Under the pieces are notes generated by a model. The model was not told the DNA's origin. It searched no databases and saw nothing but the letters and a program-made list of their open reading frames with translations. From NCBI GenBank assembly GCA_963606965.1, contig CAVDAL010000032.1:25-64024 (forward strand): 64,000 nucleotides of DNA. Reading direction: 5' to 3'. The translations under genes were made by a program, and so were the position numbers. This stretch comes from Acutalibacteraceae bacterium (GTDB lineage Bacteria; Actinomycetota; Coriobacteriia; Coriobacteriales; QAMH01). Positions 12,315 to 58,629 of this stretch are shown piece after piece (positions within the stretch are counted from its first letter, which is position 1; each line of letters begins with the position of its first letter).

Positions 12315-12459
12315 GGGAGTATTATATCCTATGGCTTGGGTGGGTGTTGCGCCGTCAGCACTTTGCTTATTTGTATTCGCGGAATTACATATTTTCAAGT
12401 CGGTAGTTTGCGTTACACTACTATAAGACATATGCCAATAGGAGTGAGGGGAAAGTTCC

Positions 12460-13341: not shown

Positions 13342-13345
13342 GTTT

Positions 13346-14326
13346 TTAATCAAATAGCATTTTTAAAGGATATCTTGGCACATCCCAATCTTCGCCTTTG
13401 AGCGTTCTGATTTTATGCAAAACTTCATAAGCTAAAATGTCAAAATCTTCACTTGGCCTTTTGCCTCTTGGGCTTGTTCCAGCATCTGCCCAAAGCACAT
13501 TGCCAGCCCCTGTTCCAAAAGGAATGCTTTCCCCAGCGCACAAACGCATGATACATGCGAGCTGTTTGACTCGTGCGCCGCTTATTGTTTCTGTATTTTC
13601 CATAGCAGTGCCTCTGGCAGGCGTGAGCTTGCCAATTCCAGAACAATATGGCTTATAAGCAATGACTTCAAACATTCGCTGGACAATTTCTTTAGGATCG
13701 CTTGATGCTTGTACTGGTTCAACAGATGTCATTATTTGCAATCCTGCAGATACAGCAGCATCCAAAGTTGCTATGCGGCTTTGCGGATTGATTGAAGTTA
13801 TTGTTCCTTCTTCTAGCCTGTGTGCATGATAAATCGATTGCACGCCGAGCTTTTTGAGTTTTTGCGCTTGCTCAAACGTAATGTCTCCGATGTTTGCCAT
13901 TACAGGCATATTGTCTGAAATATTTTCACGCACTGCTTGTACAACTTCGCAAAATTGATCAAATGGATATGCTGCTGTGCTCATCAAGCTAATTAAGTGA
14001 GCGCCGCCTTTGTCAAAAGCTTGCGCAAATCTAACAATATCTTCAAGGGGAACAATCTGTTCATTTTTGCTATATGTATTTTGTTTTGCAGCAAATTTAC
14101 AAAAGTCGCAATTTGCGGGGCAAGGCAATTTGTCTAAGCCAATTTGTGCATAAACTTGACCGATATTTTTTGAAGCTTTTCTAGAAATTATCATTGCAGC
14201 ATTTATTGTGCATGCAGCTTCAAAAGAATCTGGCTCAAATTCCATAAATCGCAAAGCTTCTTCTTCATTTAAAAGCTTGCCACGCAAAACTTCATCAAGT
14301 CGTTTTTCTATCCATTTATCAAGCAT
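13346..14326 (-). CDS. radical SAM protein, BioB/HydE-like TIM-barrel class (paralog 1), function unknown
   Basis: Cluster motif CPANCDFC (CxxxCxxC) preceded by YAQIGL. Shares blocks with 16865-17878: TSVEPV vs TCVEPV, and GAGNVLWADAGTSPRG vs SGGNLTWAEVGSNPRD. Lies 18 nt downstream of the SufS-like fusion gene. Confidence 0.75.
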   Translation of the reverse strand: MLDKWIEKRLDEVLRGKLLNEEEALRFMEFEPDSFEAACTINAAMIISRKASKNIGQVYAQIGLDKLPCPANCDFCKFAAKQNTYSKNEQIVPLEDIVRFAQAFDKGGAHLISLMSTAAYPFDQFCEVVQAVRENISDNMPVMANIGDITFEQAQKLKKLGVQSIYHAHRLEEGTITSINPQSRIATLDAAVSAGLQIMTSVEPVQASSDPKEIVQRMFEVIAYKPYCSGIGKLTPARGTAMENTETISGARVKQLACIMRLCAGESIPFGTGAGNVLWADAGTSPRGKRPSEDFDILAYEVLHKIRTLKGEDWDVPRYPLKMLFD

Positions 14327-14344
14327 TAGTCTTCCTTATAAATT

Positions 14345-16507
14345 TTATCTGTCCCAATAAAGTTTTGAACAAAGTGAAACACTTGTAAGCAAAGCTTCAA
14401 TATCTTCAAGCGTTGTATGCACAGCAATGCTTGCACGTCCTGTGCCAATTGTACCAAAAGCGCCTGAAAGAGGAATTGCACAATGCGAACCTGCGCGAAT
14501 TGCAACGCCGCGATTCCCGCAGAAAGCTGCAAGCTGCGGCGGCGTGACGCCATCAAGTGAAAATGAAACAAGTCCATTTTGTCCATCAGCTTTTGAATGG
14601 TCGCCCCAAATTGTAATTCCCCAGATTTTCTTTAGCCCAGCAACAAGTGCTTTTGTCATTGCAACTTTGTGGTTTTGGCGTTCGCCTTCATCTAAGCTTT
14701 CAAGATAGTCGATTGCGCCACCCAAAGCTATAGCTTGTGAAATTGCAGGTGTGCCTGTTTCATATTGAATTGCGCCAAGTCTCAAATAGTAAGAGTCAAG
14801 CGACACATGAGAAATTACACCTCCGCCCAATGCAAGCGGGTCCATTTCTTCAAATGCATCTGGGTGAATCCACAAGCCACCAATCCCAAATGGTGCATAC
14901 ATTTTGTGCCCTGAAAATGCAATAAAATCAGCACCTGTTTTATAAACATCAATTTTTTGATGCGGCATTGATTGCGCAGCATCCAGCACAAATCTAGCTC
15001 CGCACTCATGTGCCATCTTTGCCATCTTTTCAACTGGCGCTTTAATTCCTGTGACATTTGAAATATGTGCAATGCAAACAAGCTTTGGCTTTTGTTCAAG
15101 AAGCTTTTCATAAGCTTCCATGTCAAGTCTGCAATCAGTTGTTAGCGGCAGGGCTTCCAATCTTGCACCCTTGCGTTGTGCCAAAGCAAGCCATGGCAAA
15201 TAATTTGAATGATGCTCAGCAATTGTGCTGATAATCAAGTCACCTTCAGAAATATTATGTTCGCCCCATGCTAAAGCAACAAGATTTAGCGAATCACTTG
15301 TATTCTTTGTATATACAGTTTCACGCCTGGAAGCGCCAATATAATCTTCCAACTTCGCTCTGGCATCATTTAGCATAGCCGTTGCTTTTGCAGAAAGCTC
15401 ATAAGCACCTCTATAAACATTTGCATTTTCATGCTTGTCAAAATTTTCCTGTGCTTGCAAAGCTTGGAAGCAACGCTGGCTTGTAGCAGCAGAGTCTAAA
15501 AATGCTAAGCTGTCTTTGTTTTTTGTATCCAGCAAAATGGGGAAGTTTTTGACTTGGCTTTTTCCAAAAGCATCCGCATCTGTTAGCTTTTTGCGCAAAG
15601 GCATAGGGAATGCTTTGTTTAAGGATGAAATAACATCTTTAGCTGCGTCGATAAGCTGCATATCAGCATTGTTATAGTTTTCTTTCTTGTGCTTTTTGCC
15701 TATGCTAAGCTTCATTTGTTCATGCGCAATACGCACAGCTTCACGCGCGCTCAAAGTGCATTCTTTTTCAAAGTCTTCAACGCGCTTGCAAGCTGGCAAA
15801 TTTGAGTCAAGGCGTTCTTCACCAAAATTATGATCCTTAATTTTGAGCATTGGAAGAATGCGCTCTTTTGGTGTCATTTCATAGATGGAATTTTCAAGCA
15901 AATCGCGCGAAACCAGAAGCGGAGTGTGGCGTGTCCATGCAATCCAAGATGTAACGCAATCAAGACTTGTATCATTGCGAAAATCTTGGCAAACTTCAAT
16001 TATGTGAGCAGGCGTCAACCTGACCTGGTCGCATGAAAGCAAGATAATTGAATCAATATCCGGATCATCTTCAATTTCTTCAAAAGCTATATCAAAAATC
16101 CCTTTTGTGAAACTGAACAAATCGAAAAAGCCAGATTCTTTGCTAGCTTTAGCATCCTTTTTGGAGTCATATCTAATTACGGAAGCATCATGTGCTAACT
16201 TTTTTGGCAACCTTAAATCTGGAGCTGCAATAATGTCAACGGATGCAAATTCGCACTGGCAAGCGCATTCATAAGATTGTTCAATCAAAGTCTTTTTCTG
16301 CCACACTTGCAAAGGTCTTGAGGCTTCTTTGCAAAGCTTTGGATCTTTACCAGGAATATCAGATTGCACTTTCAATGGAGTTGTGCCCATATTGTTTGCA
16401 AGAATGAATGCAGCTGTTCTTCCGCATGCTGCTTTCAACTCGTTTTTGCTTGGATTTTCCCGCTTAGGAATTTCCATGCTTGGTTGGTGCAACTTTCGAT
16501 CTTCCAT
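14345..16507 (-). CDS. fusion protein: unassigned ~340-aa N-terminal domain (possibly a degenerate MobA/MocA-like fold) plus a SufS/CsdA-type cysteine desulfurase
   Basis: C-terminal half carries LDSAATSQ, ANVYRGAYELS, AEHHSNYLPW, the PLP lysine in FSGHKMYAPFGIGGLW, ETGTP, and the active-site Cys in RAGSHCA. N-terminal half contains AAFILANNMGTTPLKV and IILLSCDQVRLTPAHI. SD AGAGGAG precedes the ATG at 16507. Confidence 0.75.
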   Translation of the reverse strand: MEDRKLHQPSMEIPKRENPSKNELKAACGRTAAFILANNMGTTPLKVQSDIPGKDPKLCKEASRPLQVWQKKTLIEQSYECACQCEFASVDIIAAPDLRLPKKLAHDASVIRYDSKKDAKASKESGFFDLFSFTKGIFDIAFEEIEDDPDIDSIILLSCDQVRLTPAHIIEVCQDFRNDTSLDCVTSWIAWTRHTPLLVSRDLLENSIYEMTPKERILPMLKIKDHNFGEERLDSNLPACKRVEDFEKECTLSAREAVRIAHEQMKLSIGKKHKKENYNNADMQLIDAAKDVISSLNKAFPMPLRKKLTDADAFGKSQVKNFPILLDTKNKDSLAFLDSAATSQRCFQALQAQENFDKHENANVYRGAYELSAKATAMLNDARAKLEDYIGASRRETVYTKNTSDSLNLVALAWGEHNISEGDLIISTIAEHHSNYLPWLALAQRKGARLEALPLTTDCRLDMEAYEKLLEQKPKLVCIAHISNVTGIKAPVEKMAKMAHECGARFVLDAAQSMPHQKIDVYKTGADFIAFSGHKMYAPFGIGGLWIHPDAFEEMDPLALGGGVISHVSLDSYYLRLGAIQYETGTPAISQAIALGGAIDYLESLDEGERQNHKVAMTKALVAGLKKIWGITIWGDHSKADGQNGLVSFSLDGVTPPQLAAFCGNRGVAIRAGSHCAIPLSGAFGTIGTGRASIAVHTTLEDIEALLTSVSLCSKLYWDR

Positions 16508-16560
16508 AAAAATCTCCTCTTATATGACTTGCCGCCTTTTGCACATAATGCAAATAGTAT

Positions 16561-16603
16561 ATAAAAAATGACAGATTCTTGAGGCCTGATCCAAGAATCT
16601 GTC
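16561..16603 (-). terminator. intrinsic terminator inside the 5' leader of the fusion/rSAM operon (attenuator or riboswitch expression platform)
   Basis: Perfect 12-bp stem GACAGATTCTTG / CAAGAATCTGTC (16570-16581 with 16592-16603) and a 10-nt loop. On the minus strand it is followed by ATTTTTTAT. It lies 54 nt upstream of the ATG at 16507 and before the SD. Confidence 0.55.
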
Positions 16604-16701
16604 AAGTCATCCTTCTTCTTTCATCTTTAAAATAATTGCCCATTTGTTCGGACAAATGCAAAGAAATAATACTTTTGCTGCCTGTGCTTCGACCGTTTAA
16701 C

Positions 16702-16731
16702 AGTATAAGACAATGTCAAATAAAAGCGCAA
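16702..16731 (-). promoter_or_regulatory. candidate promoter for the attenuated leader
   Basis: Minus strand TTGCGC (16731-16726), 18 nt, TATACT (16707-16702). This would give a leader of about 190 nt. Confidence 0.3.
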
Positions 16732-16792
16732 GTCCATACTTTGGCGAAAAATACTTGCATTCTTGCATATACTTTAGTTATTCTGTTAGTGG

Positions 16793-16810
16793 TTAGCGAC
16801 TAATAGCTAA
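16793..16810. promoter_or_regulatory. inverted repeat TTAGC-N8-GCTAA (candidate operator) in the divergent control region
   Basis: TTAGCGACTAATAGCTAA at 16793-16810, preceded by further TTAG copies (16774-16777, 16786-16789). About 55-70 nt upstream of the rSAM paralog 2 start. Confidence 0.3.
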
Positions 16811-16864
16811 AGTTACTATATGTTAAATAAAATAAAGAATTGTTAACTCGGGGAGATGTTTTTT

Positions 16865-17878
16865 ATGCAGAAGTTAACACCAAAAGTTGTTGAGCTTTTA
16901 GAAAAAGCTGAAGAAGGCAATGGCCTTGAATTTGACGAGATGGAATATCTTTATGGTCTTGACCCAACATCGCGCGATGCATGGCTTGTGCGTTGGGTTG
17001 CACATCAAATGTCTCTTGAAGCTACAAATGGTAAAGCTGAAATTCATGCACAAATTGGTTTGAATGGCAGCCCTTGTGGCAAAAATTGCAAGTTCTGCAG
17101 CTTTGCCGTTTGCAATGGTTTAACAAAAGAAAAAGTGGAACTTGATGTTGAAGATGTTAAAGCTTATTGCGATGCATATATGGAAGAAGGCGCAAACCTG
17201 ATTCTTATGCTAACAACAGCATCTTATAAGTTTGAAAAAATTCTTGAAATGGGGCAGGTCGCACGCGAAATTATTGGCAAAGACATGCCTCTTTTGGTAA
17301 ATACAGCAGACATGACGCTTGAACAAACAAAGCAAATTAAGGCTGCTGGCTTTAATGGCGCATATCATGCAATTCGCATGCGTGAAGGCGAAGATACAGA
17401 AATTCCAGTAGAAGAAAGACTTAATACAATTAAGAATTTGCAAGCGGCAGGCTTGTCAATTTCAACATGTGTTGAACCTGTCGGTCCAGAAGCAAGCGCA
17501 CATGAAATTGCAGAAGCTTCTGCACTTTGCATGAGCTATCCAAACAATTCTGCTGGCGTTGGCAGAAGAATTACTGTTCCTGGCACAATGGTTGAACCAC
17601 GCGGGCAGATTAGCGACCTTGTTGCTTCTTTATATGTTGCTGTCTATGGCCTTACAACTGGTTTCAAACCAGCTCTTAACTGTTCTGTTTGCTCACCACT
17701 TTCTGCTGTATCTGGCGGCAACTTAACTTGGGCGGAAGTCGGTTCTAACCCACGCGACGCTGTTGAACGCACAGAAAATGGCGGACGCGGTGCAAGCATT
17801 GAACGCTGCCGCAGCGAATATGAAAAGGCTGGCTGGGAAGTTTTAGAAGGACCTTCACAGGGCTGGATTCTAGATTAG
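16865..17878 (+). CDS. radical SAM protein, BioB/HydE-like class (paralog 2), function unknown
   Basis: CGKNCKFC (CxxxCxxC) preceded by HAQIGL, with blocks shared with 13346-14326. SD GGGGAG is correctly spaced for the ATG at 16865, whereas the track start at 16856 abuts the SD. Confidence 0.75.
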   Translation: MQKLTPKVVELLEKAEEGNGLEFDEMEYLYGLDPTSRDAWLVRWVAHQMSLEATNGKAEIHAQIGLNGSPCGKNCKFCSFAVCNGLTKEKVELDVEDVKAYCDAYMEEGANLILMLTTASYKFEKILEMGQVAREIIGKDMPLLVNTADMTLEQTKQIKAAGFNGAYHAIRMREGEDTEIPVEERLNTIKNLQAAGLSISTCVEPVGPEASAHEIAEASALCMSYPNNSAGVGRRITVPGTMVEPRGQISDLVASLYVAVYGLTTGFKPALNCSVCSPLSAVSGGNLTWAEVGSNPRDAVERTENGGRGASIERCRSEYEKAGWEVLEGPSQGWILD

Positions 17879-31739: not shown

Positions 31740-31776
31740 CAAACATAGACTTACATGTCGTGCTTGCAAATTCTCC

Positions 31777-31803
31777 AGAGCTGTTTATACAGCTCTTTTT
31801 TTA
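31777..31803 (+). terminator. expression-platform terminator of the glycine riboswitch
   Basis: AGAGCTGT / ACAGCTCT 8-bp stem with a TTAT loop, followed by TTTTTTT. Ends 20 nt before the SD/ATG of agcS. Confidence 0.75.
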
Positions 31804-31822
31804 TGTCGAAAGGAGAACAAGG

Positions 31823-33241
31823 ATGCTGTTACAGATAGTACAAACTATCAATTCGTATTTGTCGGATTATGTTTTGGTCATTTTGCTTATTGGCGTTGGC
31901 CTTTGGTTCACTATTCGCACTCGCTTTGTGCAGGTGCGCTGCTTTGGTGAAGGTATGCGCAGACTTTTTGGTAACTTCAGCTTGCGCGGCAAAAAGCATG
32001 ATAGTGGAATGAGTTCATTCCAAGCTTTAGCAACTGCAATTGCAGCACAGGTTGGTACTGGTAATATCATTGGTGCTTCTGGTGCGATTTTGACAGGTGG
32101 CCCTGGCGCGATTTTTTGGATGTGGATTATCGCATTCTTTGGCATGGCAACAAATTATGCTGAAGCAACACTTGCACAAAAGACTCGTAAAGTTGGCGAA
32201 GATGGGGAAGTTAAAGGTGGTCCTGTCTATTACATTCGCACAGCTTTTACTGGCGGCTTTGGTAAGTTTTTGGCTGGATTTTTTGCTGTTGCAATTACAT
32301 TAGCTTTAGGCTTCTTTGGCTGCATGGTTCAATCAAATTCAATTGGTTCAACTTTGGAAAATGCAATTGGAATTCCAACATGGGTTATGGGCATTATTCT
32401 TGTTTTAATTTGCGCTGTAATCTTTCTTGGTGGAGTTAACAGACTTGCTTCTGTAACAGAAAAACTTGTCCCACTGATGGCAATGATTTTCTTGATTGGT
32501 AGCTTATTTGTTTTGATTGTTCGCATTAAATATATTCCAGAAACATTCTATTTGATTTTTAAATATGCGTTCCACCCAGACGCAATTATTGGCGGCGGTA
32601 TTGGCTATGCTCTTAAAACTGCAATCAGCCAAGGTGCAAAGCGCGGCCTGTTTTCAAATGAAGCTGGCATGGGTTCAACTCCACATGCTCATGCTCTTGC
32701 AAATGTTAAAAAGCCACATGATCAAGGCGTTATGGCAATGATGGGTGTTTTCATCGATACATTTGTTGTTTTGACTTTGAATGCTTTGGTTATCATTTCA
32801 ACAATGTATGCAGGCGACGGCATTTTAGCTGGTGGCTATACTGACAGCCTTGTTGACATAATTGGTAAGTCGAATTTGGCGCAGATGGCATTCGGTACTG
32901 TTATGGGTGAAAAGTTCGGCTCTATCTTTGTTGCTGTTTGCTTGTTCTTCTTTGCATTCTCTACAATTTTAAGCTGGAATTTGTTCGGCAAAATTAATGT
33001 TAAATATATGTTTGAAAAATTCCTTGGCAAAAAGAGCACAATCATTTATACAGTAATTGCACTTATCTTTATTTTCATTGGCACGCTTGCTTCAAATGAT
33101 CTTGTTTGGGAACTTTCAGATATGTTTAACCAGCTGATGGTTATTCCAAATGCACTTGCACTATTTGCATTAACAAAGCTTGTTATCAGCGCTGTTAATG
33201 AAGGATATGCTGAAAAGAAAAAGCAAAAAGAAGAAAAATAA
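31823..33241 (+). CDS. agcS: sodium:alanine (glycine) symporter, AGCS family
   Basis: Polytopic AGCS pattern: SSFQALATAIAAQVGTGNIIGASGAI, GGPGAIFWMW, NEAGMGSTPHAHA. SD AAAGGAGAA precedes the ATG at 31823. The track start at 31760 lies inside the riboswitch platform. Confidence 0.85.
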   Translation: MLLQIVQTINSYLSDYVLVILLIGVGLWFTIRTRFVQVRCFGEGMRRLFGNFSLRGKKHDSGMSSFQALATAIAAQVGTGNIIGASGAILTGGPGAIFWMWIIAFFGMATNYAEATLAQKTRKVGEDGEVKGGPVYYIRTAFTGGFGKFLAGFFAVAITLALGFFGCMVQSNSIGSTLENAIGIPTWVMGIILVLICAVIFLGGVNRLASVTEKLVPLMAMIFLIGSLFVLIVRIKYIPETFYLIFKYAFHPDAIIGGGIGYALKTAISQGAKRGLFSNEAGMGSTPHAHALANVKKPHDQGVMAMMGVFIDTFVVLTLNALVIISTMYAGDGILAGGYTDSLVDIIGKSNLAQMAFGTVMGEKFGSIFVAVCLFFFAFSTILSWNLFGKINVKYMFEKFLGKKSTIIYTVIALIFIFIGTLASNDLVWELSDMFNQLMVIPNALALFALTKLVISAVNEGYAEKKKQKEEK

Positions 33242-33271
33242 TAAATTCTTGTTGCTGATATTTTGAAGATG

Positions 33272-33301
33272 AAAGCGCCGCATTTTTTGCGGCGCTTTTT
33301 T
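33272..33301. terminator. bidirectional terminator between agcS and the convergent SufS-like gene
   Basis: AAAGCGCCGC / GCGGCGCTTT 10-bp stem flanked by an A-run and a T-run. Confidence 0.7.
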
Positions 33302-35054
33302 AATTTTTGCAAATTGATATTAAAACATTCAAGAACTTATCAATGTCTTCAAAACTGTTATAGCATGCAATAGATGCACGAACTGTTGAATCAAAACCAA
33401 GAGAATTAAGATATGGTTGCGCGCAGTGACGCCCAGAGCGTACTGCAATTCCATAGCTGTCTAGAATTTGTGCGCATTTATATGAAGACATGCCATCTAC
33501 AACAAAAGATATGGCTCCAATGCGTTCAGAACTTCTGCCAAATATTTTAATTTTTGGAATTTCTTCTAATCCCGATTGAATTTTATCCATAAGTTTTTGC
33601 TCATGATTTATGCGTGAATCTTCATCTATTAAAGTCCAAAAATTAATTGCAGCAGCAAGAGAAATTGCACCGTCAATAGGGGGAGTTCCAGGCTCGAACC
33701 GTTCAATTCCATTGCGCAAGATAAATGAACTTGTTGTGACATTTTCAACAGTTCCTCCTCCAAAAGTGCATGGCTGAAGTGTTTTTAAAAGCTCACTTTT
33801 AACCCAAAGTGCTCCAACTCCTGCAAGAGAACCAAGCTTGTGACCAGAAAATGCATACATATCACAATCAAGCTCTTTTGGCTTGTGACATGCATGGACT
33901 GCCCCTTGCGCTCCATCTATGATAATTATTGCATCTGATTTCTTCCTGGCTATGCTTGTGAGTTTCTGGTGTGGTATAGAGATTCCAGAAACATTTGAAA
34001 GCTGTGTAAATGAAAGAATGGCTGTGTTTTCGTCAATGATTTCATTAGCACTTTCTATGTTTAAAGTTCCATCTTCAAGCACTGGGATTATGCGAAGTTC
34101 ACAAGATTTTTCTTTAGCTAAATTCATCCAAGGAAGCAAATTTGAATGATGTTCCATTTCAGTTATGACAATATTTGATTTTTTGCCAAGTTTATTGCTT
34201 AGCATCCTTGCAGCTTTATTAAGCCCGTCGCTTGTGCCATAAGTAAAGATGAGTTCTTCTGCTTTAACATCTAAAAATTTTGCAACTTGCATTCTTGCTG
34301 AATCAAAAGCATCTGAACAAAGCTGAGACAATTTGTGTGTGCCTCTGTGGACATTTGAATAATTGCCTTGGCGCAGTTTGGTAATGCTTTGAATAACTTT
34401 TTGCGGCATCTGCATGCTGGCAGCATTATCCAAATAAACAAGACTGTGCCCATTAATTTCTTGCTGGAAAGCGCGAAATTGCAAGCGCAAAGCTTCATAA
34501 TCAAAGCATGATAAATTTTGTTTTTTGGAAGCGGCGACCTTATCTTGTGGGCTTTCATTGTGCATCACTGCAACTGCACAATTTTTGCCTGTACATTTTT
34601 TGATTGCTTCTATTAAGACATCAGCTAATTCGCTAATATTTTCCGCAAGGGCTGCCTTCATTGTGTCAAGCTTCACATTAAAATCGTTTTGAATCGCCAT
34701 CATCAGCAGAGCTTGTTTTGTATCAAGCGTACTTGCTCCATCACAAGTGGCAGAACGCAAAGATTCTTTAGCTAATTTTGGGTTTAATTTAAAAGCTTTA
34801 TCAATGCTTTTTTGTGTCAATTTGTCAAAGTCACAATTGCATTTTAATGTGTCGGCAAGTTCCAAAAGGTCAAATTTTGCGAGTATATAAAGCTTTAATT
34901 GCTCATCTATATAATCTTTTGAATAATTGTTCGACTGCACATTCTTAAGTATATTATTTGTGCAAGCAGAGGCTACTGACTCTCGCTTTTCAGTAGCCTC
35001 ATTTTTTATTTGCGTTGCCTGTTTCATAAGTGAAAATGTAGAAAATTTATGCAA
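33300..35054 (-). CDS. SufS/CsdA-type cysteine desulfurase with a ~185-aa N-terminal extension (carrier-protein-like helical segment)
   Basis: YLDNAASMQ, SNVHRGTHKLS, MEHHSNLLPW, PLP lysine in FSGHKLGSLAGVGALW, FEPGTPP, active-site RSGRHCAQP. The N-terminal extension contains CDGASTLDTKQALLMMAIQNDF. 8-nt overlap with the upstream gene. Confidence 0.75.
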   Translation of the reverse strand: MHKFSTFSLMKQATQIKNEATEKRESVASACTNNILKNVQSNNYSKDYIDEQLKLYILAKFDLLELADTLKCNCDFDKLTQKSIDKAFKLNPKLAKESLRSATCDGASTLDTKQALLMMAIQNDFNVKLDTMKAALAENISELADVLIEAIKKCTGKNCAVAVMHNESPQDKVAASKKQNLSCFDYEALRLQFRAFQQEINGHSLVYLDNAASMQMPQKVIQSITKLRQGNYSNVHRGTHKLSQLCSDAFDSARMQVAKFLDVKAEELIFTYGTSDGLNKAARMLSNKLGKKSNIVITEMEHHSNLLPWMNLAKEKSCELRIIPVLEDGTLNIESANEIIDENTAILSFTQLSNVSGISIPHQKLTSIARKKSDAIIIIDGAQGAVHACHKPKELDCDMYAFSGHKLGSLAGVGALWVKSELLKTLQPCTFGGGTVENVTTSSFILRNGIERFEPGTPPIDGAISLAAAINFWTLIDEDSRINHEQKLMDKIQSGLEEIPKIKIFGRSSERIGAISFVVDGMSSYKCAQILDSYGIAVRSGRHCAQPYLNSLGFDSTVRASIACYNSFEDIDKFLNVLISICKN

Positions 35055-36570
35055 TGACTGGTTCTAAACCAAGGCGTTCGGCCACAAAGCTAAGCTCTTC
35101 AACATAATCGCCATAAACAAGCGGAAGGTGGAGTCCAAAGCGTGCATGTTTTTGGAAGAAGTCATTAATGTTATTCACTTTGAAAATGAAGCCACCATTG
35201 CAGTTGTCTGTGTCATATCCAAGTCCAGCAACAATTTCGCCTTTTCCAATAAACATTTGCTTGCAATCAGAAGAAATACGAATCATCGTGATTGTTTGGC
35301 CTTTGTCTTTTTGGAAGTCATGGCGTTGAACTGCACCAAAGCCAGCATCCAGTGCAAAATGCCTTAATGCATATTCATCCAAATTATCAAAGCCATGGAA
35401 TGCACGGCATGGTGTTGAATGTGTGCACACATATAGATTTTCTTTTGTATCTACATCTGTTTCATATTTCGGGTCTGAAAAATTGATTTCGCCTTTTTCA
35501 TTAACTGGACATGGAAGAGTGTTACCCATATATGCAGCTTTTCCTGAAATTGCCATAACAATCAACATACAAAGAGCTGTGGTTACATCATATTCACAAG
35601 CTGAACCAAAGCCTTGTTCCAAATTTAGTGAATGTGTTAGGCAGAATGTGAATTGAATTTCATTCAGGCGGCGAGTTGAACATGAATCAGGACATGGTGC
35701 AGCAAAAGCAGAACAGTCATAATAATCCATCATCTTGCTAACCACTTTATATGCTTTTAGTGAATTGACAACAAATTTCTTTTCGATATTGCAGAAGCTT
35801 GCACCATTCATAAGTTCGTCAGCGAGTTCTTCACATTGAGCAATTTCTTCCTCTGTGATGTTATTTGTAATGCGCCCTGGAGTTGTATGATTTCCACCTT
35901 CTGGTAAAGGCGACATATAATCCATCATTTCATGTATATTAACGTAGCGGAAGTTTGTGCCCAACTTATCGCGCACCAAATTAAGGTTGTCGAATGTGTC
36001 TGTTCCGCCTGCCATTGCTTTGTCAGAACCAAAGCGTGTTGCACATAAGATGTTTGCATTGCGAACAATTTTTTCTGCAAGAAGGCCAATAAGTTTAGAT
36101 TTGAGTTCTTTCCAATCAAGAGCAAAAATCACATCTGCACCTCTGCGCACTGAAGATGCAAAGCAAAGCTGACCAAACATTTTGAATGGGTTTGCAGCAA
36201 TTGGCTTTTTTGTACGCAAGCAAAATTCTTCAATAACTGTATTAGCTCCAAATGCTGTATTTACAAGATAGAAGTCTGCTTCATGATCATCTTTAAGAGC
36301 TTCTTCAAACCATTCTTCTTTAATATCCCAATCATCCGTGCAACGAATAGTAGCTGGTTCAAGAACATTAAATCGTGGATCATTTTCAAGATTGAATTTT
36401 ATTGCTTGTGTGAATCCTTTATAGATTTTGCCATTAATTACTCCGTCAAAGCCTGGCTTTAATGCATCTCCTGAAGACATACGGCATGGACCTTCATAAT
36501 AATATTGATGTTCCATTGCAAAAAATACTGGCTTTACATTGAGTTGAAAATCCTTGATACTCTTTTTCAT
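35047..36570 (-). CDS. hypothetical enzyme, possibly of the L-fucose/L-arabinose-isomerase-like superfamily
   Basis: 507 aa from the ATG at 36570 (SD AGGGGAAAAG). Cys-rich core (FAAPCPDSCSTRR, GSACEYDVTTALCML) and a C-terminus (RFGLHLPLVYGDYVEELSFVAERLGLEPV) that resembles FucI/AraA-family C-termini. The family call is a weak recollection only. Confidence 0.35.
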   Translation of the reverse strand: MKKSIKDFQLNVKPVFFAMEHQYYYEGPCRMSSGDALKPGFDGVINGKIYKGFTQAIKFNLENDPRFNVLEPATIRCTDDWDIKEEWFEEALKDDHEADFYLVNTAFGANTVIEEFCLRTKKPIAANPFKMFGQLCFASSVRRGADVIFALDWKELKSKLIGLLAEKIVRNANILCATRFGSDKAMAGGTDTFDNLNLVRDKLGTNFRYVNIHEMMDYMSPLPEGGNHTTPGRITNNITEEEIAQCEELADELMNGASFCNIEKKFVVNSLKAYKVVSKMMDYYDCSAFAAPCPDSCSTRRLNEIQFTFCLTHSLNLEQGFGSACEYDVTTALCMLIVMAISGKAAYMGNTLPCPVNEKGEINFSDPKYETDVDTKENLYVCTHSTPCRAFHGFDNLDEYALRHFALDAGFGAVQRHDFQKDKGQTITMIRISSDCKQMFIGKGEIVAGLGYDTDNCNGGFIFKVNNINDFFQKHARFGLHLPLVYGDYVEELSFVAERLGLEPVIA

Positions 36571-36691
36571 CTTTTCCCCTTTATTCGATATTCGAACTGG
36601 CATTTTGCCAAAACATTAGCTGAATTGTATGAAGGCCAAATTTCTATTACAATGTTAAACTGCACAAGGAAATAAGAAAAAGGACAGCAAA

Positions 36692-37975
36692 ATGACAAAG
36701 ACAGTTCAGTCTTTTATAAATGATTTGCGTGAATCAAATGTTGTTTATACAAGCAGCAACGGCGATATAAGCGCTTCAAAAGTAGCATGGGTTATAGCTA
36801 TGCAAAATTCACTTTTGCAAGGGGGCGGATATCAAGAGCTCATTGATTTAGCTCAGCCAATTTTGCAAAACGCTCTTACTATGTCCGATGCTGGATTTCG
36901 CATTGTTGCTAACACGCAAGAAATTAAGCCTAGCATGCCAGAAGTAAAAAAGGCTATCGAACAAGGCTTTTTTGGAAATGAAGAACTTGAAGTTTTCAGA
37001 AAAAACGGGCGTCCTTTGCGCTGGAGCACTCAAAGCGGCATAGCAATTTTGGAAAATACAAATGGCAAAGGAATTGTTGAATGTATCTTCCGAGTGAAAG
37101 GTCTTTATGCTGCACATCTTGTGATGGAATGTATTGGCCGCAAGCTTGATGATGAAAATTTAATGAATGATTTTTCTCTTTTATGCAATTGCATAGAAAT
37201 GCATATCAAGCAAAATTTGCCTGCAAGTAGTATATTGAATCAAGGCTCAACAAAAGTTTTGGTCGACTTGGCTCATGGAATTTCAGTTCCAAAACAGCGC
37301 CTGCGAGCATGGATGCGCACAACAGATTTTGAAGATGGAATTTTGCACACGCTTGCTTTATTTGATTTTGCATATCAGAAAGAAGAAAAACAGTTGGCGG
37401 TAGCTGCTTGTTTGCGCATAGGTGAGCTCTTTCCACATGCTATTGTTGGCTTGGATGATTGCAGAGCTGTAATGGTTTTTCCTCATGATGTTAATGATAA
37501 TTCTTATAGTAAAAAACTTTTGTCATATGCGCATTATAGTGGGTCTATTATTGGCATTTCTGATAATTTTAATAATATTAATGATATTTCATTTGCTTAT
37601 AAACAAGCTTGCATTGCACTTGAACGAAGGAACGACTTGCACAGTGCAATTTATCCTTTCAAACAGTGCTTTGCATCATATGTAATGTCTGCTCAAGACA
37701 GAGATGACGAACTTATTAGCTATTGTTTGCAGCATTGTATCCCAATGCGTCTTATGGAATCTGATAAAAAAATGAATACAGATGATTGCAGATTGCTCTT
37801 TGAATATTTGCGAGGCGAAAGGAAGTCATCTGCGGTTGCAAATTTGCTGCATATGCACAGGAATACTCTTTTATATAGAATTAAACGAATTGAAGATGAA
37901 TATCATATCGACTTAGATGATTGGTCAACTCGCGAAAGACTTATTGTTGAATATCGCGCGATGAGTTATGAATAA
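36692..37975 (+). CDS. PucR/CdaR-family transcriptional regulator
   Basis: C-terminal PucR-type HTH SAVANLLHMHRNTLLYRIKRIEDEYHIDLDD. Divergent from the 35047-36570 / 33300-35054 operon. Confidence 0.7.
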   Translation: MTKTVQSFINDLRESNVVYTSSNGDISASKVAWVIAMQNSLLQGGGYQELIDLAQPILQNALTMSDAGFRIVANTQEIKPSMPEVKKAIEQGFFGNEELEVFRKNGRPLRWSTQSGIAILENTNGKGIVECIFRVKGLYAAHLVMECIGRKLDDENLMNDFSLLCNCIEMHIKQNLPASSILNQGSTKVLVDLAHGISVPKQRLRAWMRTTDFEDGILHTLALFDFAYQKEEKQLAVAACLRIGELFPHAIVGLDDCRAVMVFPHDVNDNSYSKKLLSYAHYSGSIIGISDNFNNINDISFAYKQACIALERRNDLHSAIYPFKQCFASYVMSAQDRDDELISYCLQHCIPMRLMESDKKMNTDDCRLLFEYLRGERKSSAVANLLHMHRNTLLYRIKRIEDEYHIDLDDWSTRERLIVEYRAMSYE

Positions 37976-44112: not shown

Positions 44113-45633
44113 ATGAGTTATATAACTCGCACATCTAATAAAATCACATTTATATTTATGTTTGTAGCTTTGCTATTTGCATCTGTTCTTGCATTGGTAA
44201 TTGTCCCGCAGGCATTTGCTGCGCGCGATTATGGCTTTCTTTCTTCAAAATATGAATCAAGCGACAACCCATCAAGCATTGACAAAAATTCATATGTTAG
44301 TGGCCTGAGCATTCAAGAATATGGTGTTGCATATGGTGCTTATCAAATGAGCAGTGGCAATGCAGAAAATTTTGCAAAATGGCTTAAGAAAAGCAAAAAT
44401 ACAAATTATGTAAGCTGGGGTAAGTCTTTAGTTTCTGCTGGTAACAAAGATAAAAAAGATGATAGCCAAAAAGGATATTTTTGCGGCACAAACTTTGACA
44501 AAAAGTGGCGTGAAATTGCAAAGAATAATCCAAGTTCATTTTTTACAGCTCAATATCTTTATTGCTTGGAAGCTTATTATGAACCAGCACTTGCATATTG
44601 GAAAAAGGCAGAACCAGATTTTGATATAAATGATTATGGCACAGCTTTGCGTGCAACTTTATTTTCAACAGCAATCCAGCATGGTCCATATGGAAGTGCA
44701 TATTATATTTTTGCAAAAGTTTCATATGTAAAAGGCATGGCTGAAAAAGATTTAATTAAACGCATTTATGAAGAGCGTGCTCGCGTCACAAGCGTTGCTC
44801 CTGAAAAAGGTGCGACAAAAATTAAGTCAAATTCAATATCAAGAAAATATGGAATTAATGGCAAGTACCTTGCTCATTTTTATAGTTGTTCTTCTGATGC
44901 GCAAATAAGCATTTATAACAGACTTTGGAATAATGAAAAAGCGGATGCTTTGAACTATTGCCCGCATTCAAAAACAACAAAATTGGTCATTAAATATACA
45001 AAGAAAAATGACAAATATGTAAAGAAGAGCACTAACGCTACAAAGTGCTTGATATGTGGGGGAATTGCAACGGCAAGCTCTGTGAAAAATGTCAAAGTTG
45101 CATATACATATAAGGGCAGCAAGATGCTCGACCAATCTGGCACAAAAGCTACAGTCCATTCAAAGGGATATTACAAAGTTGACGCAAGCTCATTGATTGT
45201 GCGCAAAAGCGCTAAGAAAAGCTCAAAAGCAAAAGGGCTTTTATATAAAGGCAAAATTTTTAAAGTGAAAAATGTTGTTATGGGCTCCGATGGATATTAT
45301 TGGGCTCAATTTAGCGGCAAACAAGTTAAAGGATATGTGCGGATGAATTATCTTGTTCCAGTTGGAACATCTTCTGTACATTATTTTGTTAGTGGCAAGT
45401 GCAAATATTGCGGCATTACAAAGAAGAAAGCAGGATATGTTAATGCTGGCAAATATAAAGCTGCGCAAAATTTGACTATCCATAAGGCAGCATATACTGA
45501 ATCTGCAAGTGTGACAACCGTTGCAAAAGGCAAAAAAATCAAGATTGTAAAAGTTGTCAAAAACGCCTATAAAGATTATTGGGGAAAGCTTGATAAAGGC
45601 GGATATGTCGACATGTCTTTGCTGAAGAAATAG
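44113..45633 (+). CDS. secreted protein: N-terminal lysozyme-like/unknown catalytic domain plus two CxxC-SH3b-like modules
   Basis: Signal peptide ending AFAARD. The C-terminal half has two repeats of a CxxCG motif (CLICGG, CKYCG), each followed by an SH3b-like segment (GYYWAQFSG..GYVRMNYL and YKDYWGKLDKGGYVDMSLL). Confidence 0.5.
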   Translation: MSYITRTSNKITFIFMFVALLFASVLALVIVPQAFAARDYGFLSSKYESSDNPSSIDKNSYVSGLSIQEYGVAYGAYQMSSGNAENFAKWLKKSKNTNYVSWGKSLVSAGNKDKKDDSQKGYFCGTNFDKKWREIAKNNPSSFFTAQYLYCLEAYYEPALAYWKKAEPDFDINDYGTALRATLFSTAIQHGPYGSAYYIFAKVSYVKGMAEKDLIKRIYEERARVTSVAPEKGATKIKSNSISRKYGINGKYLAHFYSCSSDAQISIYNRLWNNEKADALNYCPHSKTTKLVIKYTKKNDKYVKKSTNATKCLICGGIATASSVKNVKVAYTYKGSKMLDQSGTKATVHSKGYYKVDASSLIVRKSAKKSSKAKGLLYKGKIFKVKNVVMGSDGYYWAQFSGKQVKGYVRMNYLVPVGTSSVHYFVSGKCKYCGITKKKAGYVNAGKYKAAQNLTIHKAAYTESASVTTVAKGKKIKIVKVVKNAYKDYWGKLDKGGYVDMSLLKK

Positions 45634-55853: not shown

Positions 55854-56014
55854 CACATCTATCAACAAATTTTATGTGAGCTTATATCAGTTCTGTAATA
55901 TGCTATGTCGGTTATTCTTTTCATGCGCATACATATAGCAAAGCTTTGACTTGCTGTTATGTGCATGAATGGCAAAGTTGAGCACAAAACTAATAGCTTA
56001 TATAGATGGGAAGT

Positions 56015-57088
56015 ATGGAAGCAAAAAGCGCCATAGCAAAAGAGCTTGTTGATAAACTTGCATTAAAGCATTGTCTTGAACTTGAAGAATATGAACTACT
56101 TGTTTCTAGCTTTGATTGTGAACTAGCAGCATATGCAGCAAGTTTAGCTGTTGATGCATGCTTGGGTGTTTATGGCAAGAATATATATGTTCGTGGGCTT
56201 ATTGAATTTAGCAACTATTGCAAAAATAATTGCTATTATTGCGGCATCCGTGCTGAAAATAAAGCATGTGAACGTTATAGGCTGACAAATTCCCAAATTC
56301 TTGAATGTGCAGATGAAGGTTACAAACTTGGATATCGCACTATTGTTTTGCAAAGTGGCGAAGATGAATATTATACAGATGAGATTTTGTGCAATTTAAT
56401 TTCCGCTTTGAAAGAGCAGCATCAAGATTGCGCTGTCACTTTATCTGTTGGGGAGCGCAGTGCCAAAAGCTACCAATTGTTGCGAGCCGCCGGAGCAGAC
56501 AGATATCTTCTGCGTCATGAAACAGCAAATAAAGCACATTATGAAAAGCTACATCCAGGACAAATGAGCTGGCAAAATAGAATGGATTGCTTGCAAAATT
56601 TAAAGGATTGCGGCTTTTGTGTTGGCGCTGGCTTTATTGTTGGTTCACCTTATCAAAGTGCGGCATCTATCGCGCAAGATTTGAAATTCATTGAACAATT
56701 TAAGCCGCAAATGTGCGGGATTGGGCCATTTGTTCCTCATCATGCAACGCAATTTGCAAAGTGCGAGGCTGGCTCTGTTGATTTGACTTGCTATTTGCTT
56801 TCACTTATACGTTTGATTCAACCAAATATCTTGTTACCAGCAACAACAGCGCTTGCAACTCTAGCACAAGATGGTCGCGAGCGCGGAATACTTTCTGGTG
56901 CAAATGTTGTTATGCCAAATTTGTCACCGTGCAATGTTCGCAAAAAATATGAAATTTATGATAACAAAGCATGTACGGGGGAAGAAGCTGCGACAAGTTT
57001 TAAGCGTTTGAAAGCTAGCTTGAGCAAAATTGACAGGAATTTAATTATAGACAGAGGCGACCCAAAGCCGTTAAAAGAGGTGTTATAA
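56015..57088 (+). CDS. hydE: [FeFe]-hydrogenase maturase HydE (radical SAM)
   Basis: CKNNCYYCGIR cluster motif in a BioB-like barrel. Placed first in the hydEGF-hydA operon. Start is ATG 56015 (or 56006). Confidence 0.8.
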   Translation: MEAKSAIAKELVDKLALKHCLELEEYELLVSSFDCELAAYAASLAVDACLGVYGKNIYVRGLIEFSNYCKNNCYYCGIRAENKACERYRLTNSQILECADEGYKLGYRTIVLQSGEDEYYTDEILCNLISALKEQHQDCAVTLSVGERSAKSYQLLRAAGADRYLLRHETANKAHYEKLHPGQMSWQNRMDCLQNLKDCGFCVGAGFIVGSPYQSAASIAQDLKFIEQFKPQMCGIGPFVPHHATQFAKCEAGSVDLTCYLLSLIRLIQPNILLPATTALATLAQDGRERGILSGANVVMPNLSPCNVRKKYEIYDNKACTGEEAATSFKRLKASLSKIDRNLIIDRGDPKPLKEVL

Positions 57089-57091
57089 AAA

Positions 57092-58573
57092 TTGAAAGAA
57101 GAGATGGTTAAAACGCAGGAAAAATATAAATATGATGTCGCATCTTGTTGCGCAGATGAATTTATAAACAATGATGAGATTTTGGAATCTTTGGCTTATG
57201 CGCAGGAAAATAAGGGCAATGTTGAACTATGTCGCAAAATTCTTGCGCAGGCGCAATCGTCACTTGAAAATCCGCGCCGCGACCATGCGCCAGTCATAAC
57301 TCATCGTGAAGCTGCTTTGCTTCTTGCTTGTGAAGATCCACAAATTGATGCTGCTTGCAAGGCGCTGGCTAGGAAAATTAAGCTGCGTTTTTATGGCAAC
57401 AGAATTGTCCTGTTCGCTCCTCTTTATCTTTCAAATTATTGTGTCAATAGCTGTTTGTACTGCCCATATCATGCAAAGAATAAAGAAATCCCGCGTCACA
57501 AATTAACGCAAGAGCAGATACGTGCAGAAGTTATTGCTTTGCAAGATGCAGGGCACAAGCGCTTGGCAATTGAAGCTGGGGAAGATCCACACAACAACCC
57601 GCTTAGTTACATCTTGGAAAGCATAAATACAATCTATGAAACGAAGCACAAAAATGGTGCAATTCGCAGAGTTAATGTAAATATTGCAGCTACTAGTGTT
57701 GATGAATATAAGCAGCTTAAAAGCGCTGGTATTGGCACATATATTTTGTTTCAAGAAACATATAACAAAGAAAAATATTTGCAGTTGCACCCAACAGGCC
57801 CAAAGCATGATTATAACTGGCACACGGAAGCACACGACCGTGCAATGCAAGCTGGTATAGACGATGTTGGACTTGGTGTTTTGTTTGGTTTGGATAGCTA
57901 TGACTATGAGCTTGTTGGTTTGATTATGCATGCGGAACATTTGGAGACTCGTTTTGGCGTTGGTCCGCACACAATCAGCGTTCCGCGAGTGAAGCCTGCA
58001 ATGGATATTAATCCTGATGTTTTTGATAATGGAATTTCAGATGAACTTTTTGAAAAAATCATTGCAATTATTCGCTTGGCTGTTCCATATACAGGCATGA
58101 TAATTTCCACTCGTGAAGGGCAAAGCGTGCGCGATGCTGCGTTGCAATATGGGGTCTCGCAAATTTCTGGCGGTTCGCGCACTAGTGTTGGTGGTTATGT
58201 TCAAAGTGAACGCCCACATGATACAGAGCAATTTAATGTGTCTGACCAGCGCAGTCTTGATGAAGTCATTGGTTGGCTTATTGATCGTGGGCACATTCCA
58301 AGTTTTTGCACAGCTTGTTATAGGGCGGGGCGCACTGGCGATCGCTTTATGGAATTTTGCAAAAATGGTGAAATCTTGAATTATTGTCACCCGAATGCAC
58401 TTTTGACTTTGGAAGAATATTTAAGCGATTATGCTTCAAGTGAAGTGCGCGAAAAGGGAAGAAAGCTTGTTGATATTGAGCTGAATAAAATTACGAATGA
58501 AAACACTCGCGCTTTATGTGGTGAAAGAATAGATCAAATTCGCAACTCGCAGGCGCGAGATTTTCGATTTTAG
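57092..58573 (+). CDS. hydG: [FeFe]-hydrogenase maturase HydG (radical SAM tyrosine lyase)
   Basis: CVNSCLYCPY radical SAM motif, ThiH-like core, and C-terminal auxiliary-cluster cysteines (SFCTACYRAGRTGDRFMEFC). Start is TTG 57092 or ATG 57104. Confidence 0.85.
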   Translation: MKEEMVKTQEKYKYDVASCCADEFINNDEILESLAYAQENKGNVELCRKILAQAQSSLENPRRDHAPVITHREAALLLACEDPQIDAACKALARKIKLRFYGNRIVLFAPLYLSNYCVNSCLYCPYHAKNKEIPRHKLTQEQIRAEVIALQDAGHKRLAIEAGEDPHNNPLSYILESINTIYETKHKNGAIRRVNVNIAATSVDEYKQLKSAGIGTYILFQETYNKEKYLQLHPTGPKHDYNWHTEAHDRAMQAGIDDVGLGVLFGLDSYDYELVGLIMHAEHLETRFGVGPHTISVPRVKPAMDINPDVFDNGISDELFEKIIAIIRLAVPYTGMIISTREGQSVRDAALQYGVSQISGGSRTSVGGYVQSERPHDTEQFNVSDQRSLDEVIGWLIDRGHIPSFCTACYRAGRTGDRFMEFCKNGEILNYCHPNALLTLEEYLSDYASSEVREKGRKLVDIELNKITNENTRALCGERIDQIRNSQARDFRF

Positions 58574-58629
58574 ATTTTGTACTTTTGATTTTGAAATTGC
58601 GAGTACATGAATGGAGGAAAGCTTAAAAC

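Follow-up and report, generated by a model that had tools for sequence, protein, structure and literature searches.

The locus considered here occupies positions 33300-37975 of a 64-kb stretch of bacterial DNA (henceforth, the window) taken from contig CAVDAL010000032.1 of the GenBank assembly GCA_963606965.1. It consists of a two-gene operon on the minus strand and a divergently transcribed regulatory gene on the plus strand, and the three open reading frames (ORFs) that an earlier note, made from the sequence alone, had placed here were all recovered at those coordinates. The first gene of the operon (35047-36570) encodes a 507-aa protein, here termed FUCL, which is a very remote relative of the L-arabinose and L-fucose isomerases. 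The second (33300-35054; 584 aa, with a TTG start) encodes a SufS-like cysteine desulfurase preceded by an extension that is very probably a fused copy of a small helical protein, here termed SMALL. The plus-strand gene (36692-37975) codes for a 427-aa transcriptional regulator of the PucR/CdaR type with an HTH_30 domain. The safest conclusion that can be drawn from their analysis is that these genes form a dedicated sulfur-mobilizing module, which serves neither housekeeping Fe-S assembly nor ordinary sugar catabolism.

The C-terminal part of the fusion protein (33300-34484) is a type II (SufS-like) cysteine desulfurase domain of the class V aminotransferase fold, which is matched by the Aminotran_5 model with an E value of 1e-110 over residues 206-574, leaving the first ~185-205 residues as an extra region. 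The pyridoxal phosphate (PLP)-binding Lys406 (33837-33839) lies in an FSGHK motif and aligns with Lys226 of Escherichia coli SufS, while the catalytic Cys544 (33423-33425) is found in the sequence RSGRHCAQ, which fits the RxGxHCA motif; the same alignment shows that the equivalents of His123, Asp200, Gln203, Lys226, Arg359, Cys364, Arg379, and Arg56 are all retained. Among the NCBIfam models the best match is the sufS subfamily (TIGR01979), with a score below its cutoff (399.6 versus 475.1 bits), and the SufS equivalog NF006791 likewise falls below its own (332.8 versus 661 bits). The nearest relatives of the domain are that of another fused protein, P0242 (67% identity), and the unfused SufS proteins linked to FUCL in Gordonibacter (44-48%). 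As the earlier note had remarked, Fe-S scaffold genes are missing from the vicinity: tblastn searches with the E. coli proteins found no homolog of SufB, SufD, SufA, or SufE in the window. A syntenic relative of the locus (L092) encodes IleS, a PucR-type regulator (427 aa), FUCL (507 aa), a fused SMALL-SufS protein (636 aa), and AgcS, and it too is devoid of SufE, as well as of SufB, SufD, and SufA. The fusion of SMALL to SufS thus coincides in both cases with the absence from the locus of SufE, whose versions in related loci retain Cys51. We also considered whether the fusion protein might be a cargo desulfurase of family 2A encapsulins. This was rejected, given that the match to the corresponding model (NF041166), at 380.6 bits, stays below the cutoff of 800 and covers only model positions 200-621, which represent the desulfurase part; further, the N-terminus is homologous to SMALL, and no shell-like gene is present among the immediate neighbors.

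The ~185-aa N-terminal extension of this enzyme, noticed previously as an extra segment, is real, inasmuch as the Aminotran_5 match begins at residue 206, but it is not anonymous. In Coriobacteriia, Christensenella, and Lachnospiraceae, an unannotated free-standing protein of ~140 aa (SMALL) is encoded after FUCL, with SufS/SufE genes after or before it, and tblastn searches with such proteins matched positions 34620-34940 of the window, inside the extension, with E values of 4e-13 and 4e-10. We therefore have little hesitation in regarding the extension as a fused SMALL domain, which spans residues ~1-160 (34575-35054) and is joined to the desulfurase by a low-confidence linker (residues ~161-190; 34485-34574) with predicted local distance difference test (pLDDT) values below 50 at residues 162-190. 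A word-indexed search with the extension gave a single protein; the relatives of SMALL were accordingly collected by a profile search and an exhaustive phmmer search, the latter of which returned 76 proteins, nearly all free-standing, from 1.84 billion representative proteins. Fused versions include SMALL-SufS in the window, P0242, and P0244 (the latter two Pfam-confirmed), SMALL-SufE in P0307 (Pfam-confirmed) and L042, and SufE-SMALL in P0293 (Pfam-confirmed). At the locus L010, the SMALL and SufS genes are split by the sequence TAG-GAG-ATG; they share a reading frame and lie just three codons from each other, so that a fusion would require no more than the disappearance of a single stop codon. 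These fusions, possibly along with one between SufE and FUCL, tie the four proteins together. The latter is seen as a 655-aa ORF in two Eggerthellaceae metagenome-assembled genomes (MAGs; L054 1530-3497 and L056 9560-11527) and could be either a real fusion or an assembly frameshift; in a third MAG (L059), SufE and FUCL are separate ORFs that overlap by 29 nt.

SMALL is a poorly conserved domain with just 20-30% conservation across 95 sequences, in which Cys104 (34743-34745) and Lys113 (34716-34718) are nevertheless both invariant (in 95/95 and, in a second set, 60/60 sequences) and Ser83 is nearly so. Its AlphaFold2 model (pLDDT 81) displays two N-terminal helices followed by a four-helix bundle (residues 76-154). 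Acyl carrier proteins (ACPs) dominate the weak Foldseek matches of this bundle, with target-normalized template modeling (TM) scores of 0.67-0.74 and E values all above 0.3. The PF00550 (PP-binding) model is weakly matched in 4 of 28 SMALL members, and hhalign aligns the family with E. coli AcpP at a probability of 48%. Going by these models and alignments, the C-terminal half of SMALL is probably ACP-like. The column that best matches the phosphopantetheine-bearing Ser of ACPs contains Ser in 84, Thr in 9, and another residue in 2 of the 95 sequences, with the window version having Thr, and general phosphopantetheinylation of SMALL was rejected for want of an invariant Ser. The invariant Cys lies five residues upstream of this column, in the loop before the equivalent of ACP helix II.

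FUCL is not matched above threshold by any Pfam or NCBIfam model. The closest Pfam hint comes from Fucose_iso_C (E value of 0.013; 15.6 bits versus a cutoff of 29.3), which is also weakly matched in 13 of 34 homologs, with a best E value of 6.9e-5. Homologs number 567 at the 90% cluster level, are nearly all 505-520 aa in length, and in some cases have been named "fucose isomerase" by NCBI. Sequence-based searches of the PDB, whether with the protein itself or with a 34-sequence profile, returned noise only, and hhalign of the FUCL profile against the single sequence of E. coli AraA gave a probability of 0.3%. The fold tells a different story: an AlphaFold2 model built with 34 homologs (pLDDT 91.8; predicted TM score 0.92) retrieves 33 AraA chains as the first Foldseek matches in the PDB (E values of 3e-20 to 4e-17, TM scores of 0.61-0.68, identity of 11-14%), with L-fucose isomerases and a single D-arabinose isomerase coming next at E values of ~1e-11. 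The C-terminal resemblance to FucI/AraA proposed in the earlier note is hence borne out, weakly in sequence and strongly in fold, except that it extends across the whole 507 aa and is not confined to the C-terminus.

The correspondence appears to reach into the active site. A Smith-Waterman local alignment pairs QGYGFAGE(306)GD of AraA with QGFGSAC(325)E(326)YD of FUCL (z = 4.5; reached by 0 of 200 shuffles). In the same register, the second catalytic residue of AraA, Glu333, is replaced by Gly349 of FUCL, in a column that is Gly or Ala in 221/221 sequences, while the motifs around His350 and His450 of AraA fall on His384 and His481, a tentative mapping by collinear motifs. The full AraA complement of four Mn ligands and both catalytic Glu residues (Glu306, Glu333, His350, and His450) is thus not found in FUCL. 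On the basis of this alignment, Glu326, His384, and His481 constitute a putative metal triad that would match three of the four Mn ligands. That these residues form one site is independently suggested by 13 of the 221 sequences, in which they are jointly replaced by Lys, Met, and Met (K/M/M). Seven Cys residues (Cys29, 286, 293, 297, 310, 325, and 457) are invariant in the 221 distinct sequences and are kept in the K/M/M versions; the motifs CPDSCSTRR and GSACEYD, singled out previously as a Cys-rich core, are present, with their cysteines conserved family-wide. Glu214, Pro231, Gly232, Arg301, and Asp328 are also invariant. FUCL thus genuinely belongs to the AraA/FucI superfamily, if at a great distance; one of the two catalytic Glu residues is gone, and a Cys-rich core has been acquired.

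The K/M/M copies have a context of their own. In the four cases with readable downstream sequence (L019 13821-15347, L029 14543-16072, and 5001-6530 in both L095 and L097), they have no SMALL of their own and, hence, the loss of the Glu/His/His residues goes along with the loss of the private SMALL. Each is located downstream of a complete FUCL-SMALL-SufE-SufS operon or forms its last gene, in some cases preceded by a binding protein of the leucine/isoleucine/valine (LIV) type, and these copies may represent noncatalytic subunits or enzymes of a second step. In addition, FUCL of the window is 77% identical to its ortholog in L010, a high-GC Coriobacteriales MAG, despite a large difference in GC content; between the same two loci, identity is just ~33% in SMALL-SufS and ~28% in the PucR-type regulator, an unusually steep contrast in constraint within an operon.

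A scan of one genome per GTDB species uncovered at least 202 FUCL loci. The best 80 of these 202 come from Eggerthellaceae and other Coriobacteriia (Ellagibacter, Gordonibacter), Lachnospiraceae, Oscillospiraceae, Christensenellaceae, and their relatives, and the hosts are without exception gut or rumen anaerobes. To count the components, hidden Markov models (HMMs) built from the window and the first loci were searched against all ORFs of 81 nonredundant loci; many contigs being short or cut, the resulting figures are lower bounds. SMALL was detected in 78 of the 81 loci, SufE in 67, SufS in 48, a PucR-type regulator in 37, and a LysR-type regulator in 25, and, of the 101 FUCL genes whose downstream sequence was long enough to check, 92 have a co-directional SMALL gene after them. 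The gene order of the window is matched in Gordonibacter, where a divergent PucR gene is followed by FUCL, SMALL, SufS, and SufE. No Fe-S scaffold gene was seen in the loci whose genes were listed. Together with the fusions, this recurrence agrees with the proposal in the earlier note of specialized sulfur transfer over general Fe-S assembly, and the conservation of the neighborhood, whose examination it had recommended, is upheld in the form of FUCL, SMALL, and SufE/SufS under a PucR- or LysR-type regulator. It leaves us in hardly any doubt that we are dealing with a conserved, dedicated module.

Many genomes contain several FUCL-SMALL pairs, just 33-49% identical to each other, which share a single SufS/SufE set. 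The identity matrices of FUCL and SMALL are correlated with r = 0.83, and swapping the SMALL proteins within loci lowered r in 2000 of 2000 permutations; therefore, each SMALL is matched to its own FUCL, and the two co-diversify. Islands with four pairs each, which are 34-48% identical to one another, occur in L022 (3052-14093, in tandem) and on the contig JAZQEX010000094.1 (L027 and L064); scattered between the pairs are genes for PucR and LysR regulators, for a CoA-transferase III, and for a bacterial chalcone isomerase.

Apart from regulators, the recurrent neighbors of the module are importers, namely, divalent anion:sodium symporters (DASS), major facilitator superfamily (MFS) transporters, DctM subunits of tripartite ATP-independent periplasmic (TRAP) transporters, sodium:solute symporters (SSF), and LIV-type ATP-binding cassette (ABC) components with their binding proteins. 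Enzymes of the kind known from polyphenol and aromatic-acid metabolism are also encoded near FUCL in one or a few loci: reductases combining old yellow enzyme (OYE) and flavin adenine dinucleotide-binding domains, bacterial chalcone isomerase, CoA-transferase III, UbiD, feruloyl esterases, molybdenum-bis(molybdopterin guanine dinucleotide) oxidoreductases, and Amidohydro_2 proteins; for chalcone isomerase, the OYE-type reductase, UbiD, and the feruloyl esterases, each association concerns one to three loci. A link to polyphenol metabolism, which the host species also suggest, is no more than a hint; the importers and these enzymes point tentatively to organic or phenolic acids taken up from outside as substrates, in place of the sugar-like substrate that the earlier note had named as an example. 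Sulfuration of the molybdenum cofactor, an idea raised by the PucR-type regulator and by molybdenum oxidoreductases in nine loci, was set aside: the nine are almost all from Eggerthellaceae, a group rich in these oxidoreductases, which are missing from nearly all loci of Firmicutes, and FUCL-SMALL paralogs arranged in tandem and accompanied by importers are unlike a maturation factor.

With respect to expression, the longest FUCL ORF reaches 36603 (518 aa), and we place the start at the ATG at 36570 because it is preceded by the ribosome-binding site (RBS) AAAGGGGAAAAG, the N-termini of homologs align there, and the site is kept in L092. The 8-nt overlap between FUCL and the fusion gene described earlier holds only if the latter starts at the TTG at 35054; with the alternative ATG at 35027 (575 aa), there would instead be a 19-nt gap, and in L092 a 56-nt spacer separates the two genes. 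A pattern scan of the minus strand found no promoter-like or terminator-like site at this junction; the sites it reports inside the two coding regions are about as many as in shuffled sequence. Cotranscription of both genes is likely, whichever start applies. At the end of the operon, facing the convergent AgcS gene, a GC-rich hairpin (33271-33299) with a 12-bp stem, including seven GC pairs, and a subsequent T-run is probably a bidirectional terminator.

The regulator is divergent from FUCL, as previously proposed, and lies at a distance of 121 bp. Its HTH_30 domain (residues 369-421) is detected with an E value of 1.5e-11 (44.3 bits versus a Pfam cutoff of 27), and there is a weak GGDEF_2 match (E value of 0.0026); against the models of the characterized PucR, CdaR, AdeR, and PmfR proteins, the best score is 25.5 bits, with cutoffs of 600-800. 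The intergenic control region (36571-36691), for which the evidence consists of consensus matches and partial conservation with L092 only, contains a promoter-like site for the FUCL operon (36652-36624, minus strand), the FUCL RBS, and, between the predicted -10 element and this RBS, the perfect 13-nt palindrome TGGCATTTTGCCA (TGGCA-TTT-TGCCA; 36598-36610). This palindrome was the sole yield of a search for a conserved PucR operator and is imperfectly kept in the one close relative, L092, whose intergenic region has insertions totaling ~140 nt relative to the window; we consider it a candidate operator. The genes flanking the operon, PurL, AgcS, and IleS, are of the housekeeping kind. AgcS, an alanine/glycine:cation symporter (31760-33241), converges on the operon both here and in L092, and a link to the alanine made by SufS is conceivable, though this may be plain synteny.

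Based on these observations, we propose the following scheme. The PucR-type regulator, presumably in response to a small molecule, would turn on the operon. The SufS domain, using PLP, would take sulfur from L-cysteine, yielding alanine and a persulfide on Cys544. The persulfide would then be transferred to Cys104 of SMALL, via SufE in most genomes, and within a single polypeptide or dimer in the window, where SMALL is fused to SufS and the locus has no SufE. The loaded carrier would dock on its cognate FUCL, which would use the sulfur at the former isomerase site, i.e., the Glu326/His384/His481 metal site beside Cys325, most likely to form a C-S bond on, or otherwise alter, an anionic substrate that bears a carbonyl group and is taken up by the associated transporters. 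In this scheme, the genes present, the SMALL-SufS fusion, the folds, and the conserved residues are observed, as are the co-occurrence and co-diversification of the components; every transfer step past the SufS chemistry is inferred, and the same holds for what Cys104 does, for the metal site, and for the final reaction. The order of the relay is suggested by the fusions and by the presence in SMALL of just one invariant Cys, as well as by the lack of SufE in cases of SMALL-SufS fusion and the cognate pairing of FUCL with SMALL. That Cys104 is a link in a persulfide relay appears rather probable to us; for the entire route from cysteine through SufS, optionally SufE, and SMALL Cys104 to FUCL, with use of the sulfur at the AraA-like site, belief and doubt are evenly balanced. 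As to the fate of the sulfur, the analogy with other systems leads us to slightly favor its use as a co-substrate at the AraA-like metal site, since these typically have private carriers and since FUCL copies devoid of the Glu/His/His site are also devoid of a SMALL of their own; taken on its own, consumption as a co-substrate, and not only as a building block of a cofactor, remains a tentative suggestion.

Several observations weigh against this scheme. SufS was absent in 33 of the 81 loci, some of which are cut by contig ends; in the others, a housekeeping desulfurase may provide the sulfur. Support for the ACP likeness of SMALL is only moderate (Foldseek E values above 0.3; hhalign probability of 48%), and the mapping of His384 and His481 comes from collinear motifs and co-variation and not from structural superposition. 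Stoichiometric use of cysteine sulfur in what appears to be an inducible catabolic system would be costly, and we know of no thiolated products of diet-derived acids among gut metabolites. Seven invariant Cys residues exceed the need of a simple sulfurtransferase and argue almost as strongly for a metal-sulfur cofactor built or maintained by the relay; a metal-sulfur cluster fits them at least equally well. Further, the K/M/M copies retain the seven Cys without a SMALL of their own and, therefore, the role of these residues would be independent of SMALL.

The cysteines accordingly lend themselves to a scenario of dedicated cofactor maturation, in which sulfide from SufS, SufE, and SMALL builds or repairs an iron-sulfur or metal-sulfur center of FUCL, and the FUCL reaction itself is a sulfur-independent isomerization, dehydration, or redox step on an imported organic or phenolic acid. 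The Cys set is better conserved than the Glu/His/His triad; four of the seven display the spacing C-X3-C-X12-C-X14-C; and in the FUCL model they are positioned at strand ends and helix starts, the usual cofactor-binding edge of alpha/beta proteins. The service of several FUCL paralogs by one SufS/SufE set and the scattered redox and aromatic-acid enzymes in the neighborhoods (the OYE-type reductase, UbiD, chalcone isomerase, and molybdenum oxidoreductases) would also fit. However, ordinary Fe-S enzymes do without a desulfurase, a transpersulfurase, and a private carrier of their own, and a single invariant Cys in SMALL is too few for a scaffold. Moreover, the strict one-to-one pairing of co-diversifying FUCL and SMALL proteins recalls sulfur carriers and their synthases and not shared maturation factors, while the K/M/M copies suggest that a private SMALL is not required for filling the Cys site. 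We consider this scenario unlikely, though by no means negligible. More improbable still is that SMALL is merely an adaptor or activator, in a role like that of ISD11-ACP on eukaryotic NFS1, which tethers SufS/SufE to FUCL while SufE or SufS passes sulfur straight to a cysteine of FUCL. Its probably ACP-like C-terminal half, whose Foldseek matches include the ACP chain of the human NFS1-ISD11-ACP complex, the apparent SufE-FUCL fusion, and the occurrence of SMALL in fusions with SufS as well as with SufE, which would suit a docking module, are all compatible with this. Against it speak the invariance of Cys104 and Lys113 in a domain otherwise so poorly conserved and the absence of SufE where SMALL is fused to SufS, which fits SMALL as a replacement acceptor.

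The remaining alternatives concern the nature of the enzymes themselves. Group II desulfurases commonly accept selenocysteine, and the selenocysteine lyase model SclA gives a weak match to the SufS-like domain (147 bits), so that selenium might in principle be delivered to FUCL or its substrate; but the SclA cutoff of 525 bits is far above this score, the SufS/CsdA models match the domain with much better scores, SufE works in the relay of sulfur, and neither selD nor any other selenium gene was found among the window ORFs scanned. We hold a selenium relay to be very improbable and, indeed, nothing was found that points to either the selenium or the purine link previously entertained. Even less credence attaches to the enzyme being the general SufS of the cell with incidental neighbors. 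The canonical catalytic residues and the best NCBIfam match, sufS, would speak for housekeeping Fe-S biogenesis, against which stand a score under the cutoff for that model, the lack of SufB, SufD, SufA, and SufE in the window, the divergent PucR-type regulator, and the fact that its association with FUCL and SMALL, fusions included, recurs across several classes in 81 loci. Similarly, the unambiguous fold match and the "fucose isomerase" names might suggest that FUCL is a divergent L-fucose or L-arabinose isomerase of ordinary sugar catabolism with no relation to SufS. This appears just as far-fetched: Glu333 of AraA has become Gly349, all isomerase HMMs remain below threshold, and AraA/FucI have nothing equivalent to the seven invariant Cys or to the obligatory SMALL partner. 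Clustering of the neighborhoods uncovered no recurrent kinase, aldolase, or epimerase partner; in one Christensenella locus, genes for an FGGY kinase and a class II aldolase are present ~3-5 kb upstream. A known pathway enzyme that would explain the pairing of FUCL with the desulfurase was not found.

Elsewhere in the window there is a second SufS fusion, as the earlier note had observed in treating the two as a related pair. The second fusion is real (14345-16507; 720 aa, with a weak MobA-like NTP-transferase match at the N-terminus), but its SufS domain is ~30% identical to that of the SMALL-SufS protein, and the two belong to unrelated systems. It is sandwiched between BioB-like radical S-adenosylmethionine (SAM) proteins (13346-14326 and 16856-17878) in a cluster (11601-17878) that also encodes a TcdA/ThiF-like adenylyltransferase (11601-12473) and an ArsM-like methyltransferase (12460-13341; 246 bits versus a cutoff of 263) and is flanked by a formate/nitrite transporter and an NMT1/THI5-type ABC system. 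This cluster is a different sulfur-related system without a relationship to the FUCL module. Positions 56006-59856 harbor a pair of radical-SAM genes, of which one encodes a BATS domain, and, after these, a gene for a HydF-type GTPase; together they match the HydE/HydG/HydF maturation set of [FeFe]-hydrogenases, and a gene for an NADH-dependent Fe-S flavoprotein comes after them. A 506-aa protein (44113-45633) with a VgrG3-like C-terminal domain and a bacterial SH3 domain is probably a cell wall hydrolase.

Returning to the persulfide relay, its boldest version would make FUCL-SMALL a new class of sulfur-dependent enzyme, in which an AraA scaffold was rebuilt around the Glu/His/His residues and seven Cys and receives persulfide from a private ACP-like carrier. 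In the gut, organic or phenolic acids from the diet might be its substrates, on which it would form C-S bonds or carry out a sulfur-assisted conversion without precedent, with paralogous pairs tuned to different substrates. We advance this as a rather doubtful speculation, and similar reserve applies to the end reaction being categorically new. The module is common in anaerobes of the human and animal gut (Gordonibacter, Ellagibacter, Eubacterium oxidoreducens, Christensenella, Lachnospiraceae, and Oscillospiraceae) that are known for transforming dietary compounds. Anciently diverged enzyme-carrier pairs beside substrate-type regulators and importers are a pattern that usually marks a substrate-diversified family, and the reaction could reveal new organosulfur chemistry of the gut or a new metallocofactor. 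In any event, the "fucose isomerase" annotation of FUCL homologs is misleading, and the fusion in the window, by reducing the system to two proteins, is convenient for reconstitution. Literature searches, along with a recent enzyme discovery paper on Gordonibacter and Ellagibacter, yielded no description of the module.

Among known systems, desulfurase persulfide relays feed Fe-S scaffolds, tRNA thiolation, and the synthesis of thiamine and molybdopterin, and the FUCL module would add a further branch to these. Like the SufS-SufE and CsdA-CsdE-TcdA systems of E. coli, it has a group II PLP-dependent desulfurase with the RxGxHCA Cys and, in most related loci, a SufE with a conserved Cys. Unlike them, its putative terminal acceptor is an AraA-fold protein with a small partner and not SufBCD or a ThiF-like protein; further, in contrast to SufS-SufE, the window version has an unrelated carrier-like domain fused in place of SufE, and a ligand-type regulator presides over the module. 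FUCL shares with AraA and FucI the three-domain fold (Foldseek E values of 3e-20 and 1e-11) and the motif QG(F/Y)G.A.E.D with the first catalytic, metal-binding Glu, but departs from them in its identity of 11-14%, the replacement of the second Glu by Gly, the seven invariant Cys, and the absence of recurrent sugar-pathway neighbors. Among the curated families, SftI (NF048012), a FucI-like sulfoquinovose isomerase acting on an anionic sugar, alone shows a sequence-level similarity, with E values of 2e-5 (the value for FUCL of the window) to 6e-11 in the active-site region; the scores, 23.3 bits for FUCL and up to 41.8 for its homologs, are nonetheless far from the cutoff of 700, and no sulfoglycolysis genes were noted nearby. 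Mechanistic parallels would be offered by ThiS-ThiG in thiazole synthesis and BexX in 2-thiosugar synthesis, in which a small carrier brings activated sulfur to a tautomerized sugar carbonyl. The carriers of those systems have a ubiquitin fold and bear a C-terminal thiocarboxylate formed after adenylation of the ThiF/MoeB type, whereas SMALL is helical and probably ACP-like, the sulfur would reside on a Cys side chain, and the module has no adenylating enzyme. The predicted four-helix bundle of SMALL (residues 76-154) finds its best, though weak, structural matches among ACPs, but SMALL has two extra N-terminal helices and an invariant Cys and Lys in place of an invariant Ser. In overall form, then, the system looks like a cysteine desulfurase persulfide relay with unprecedented acceptors, FUCL and SMALL, both of which lie outside the curated family models.

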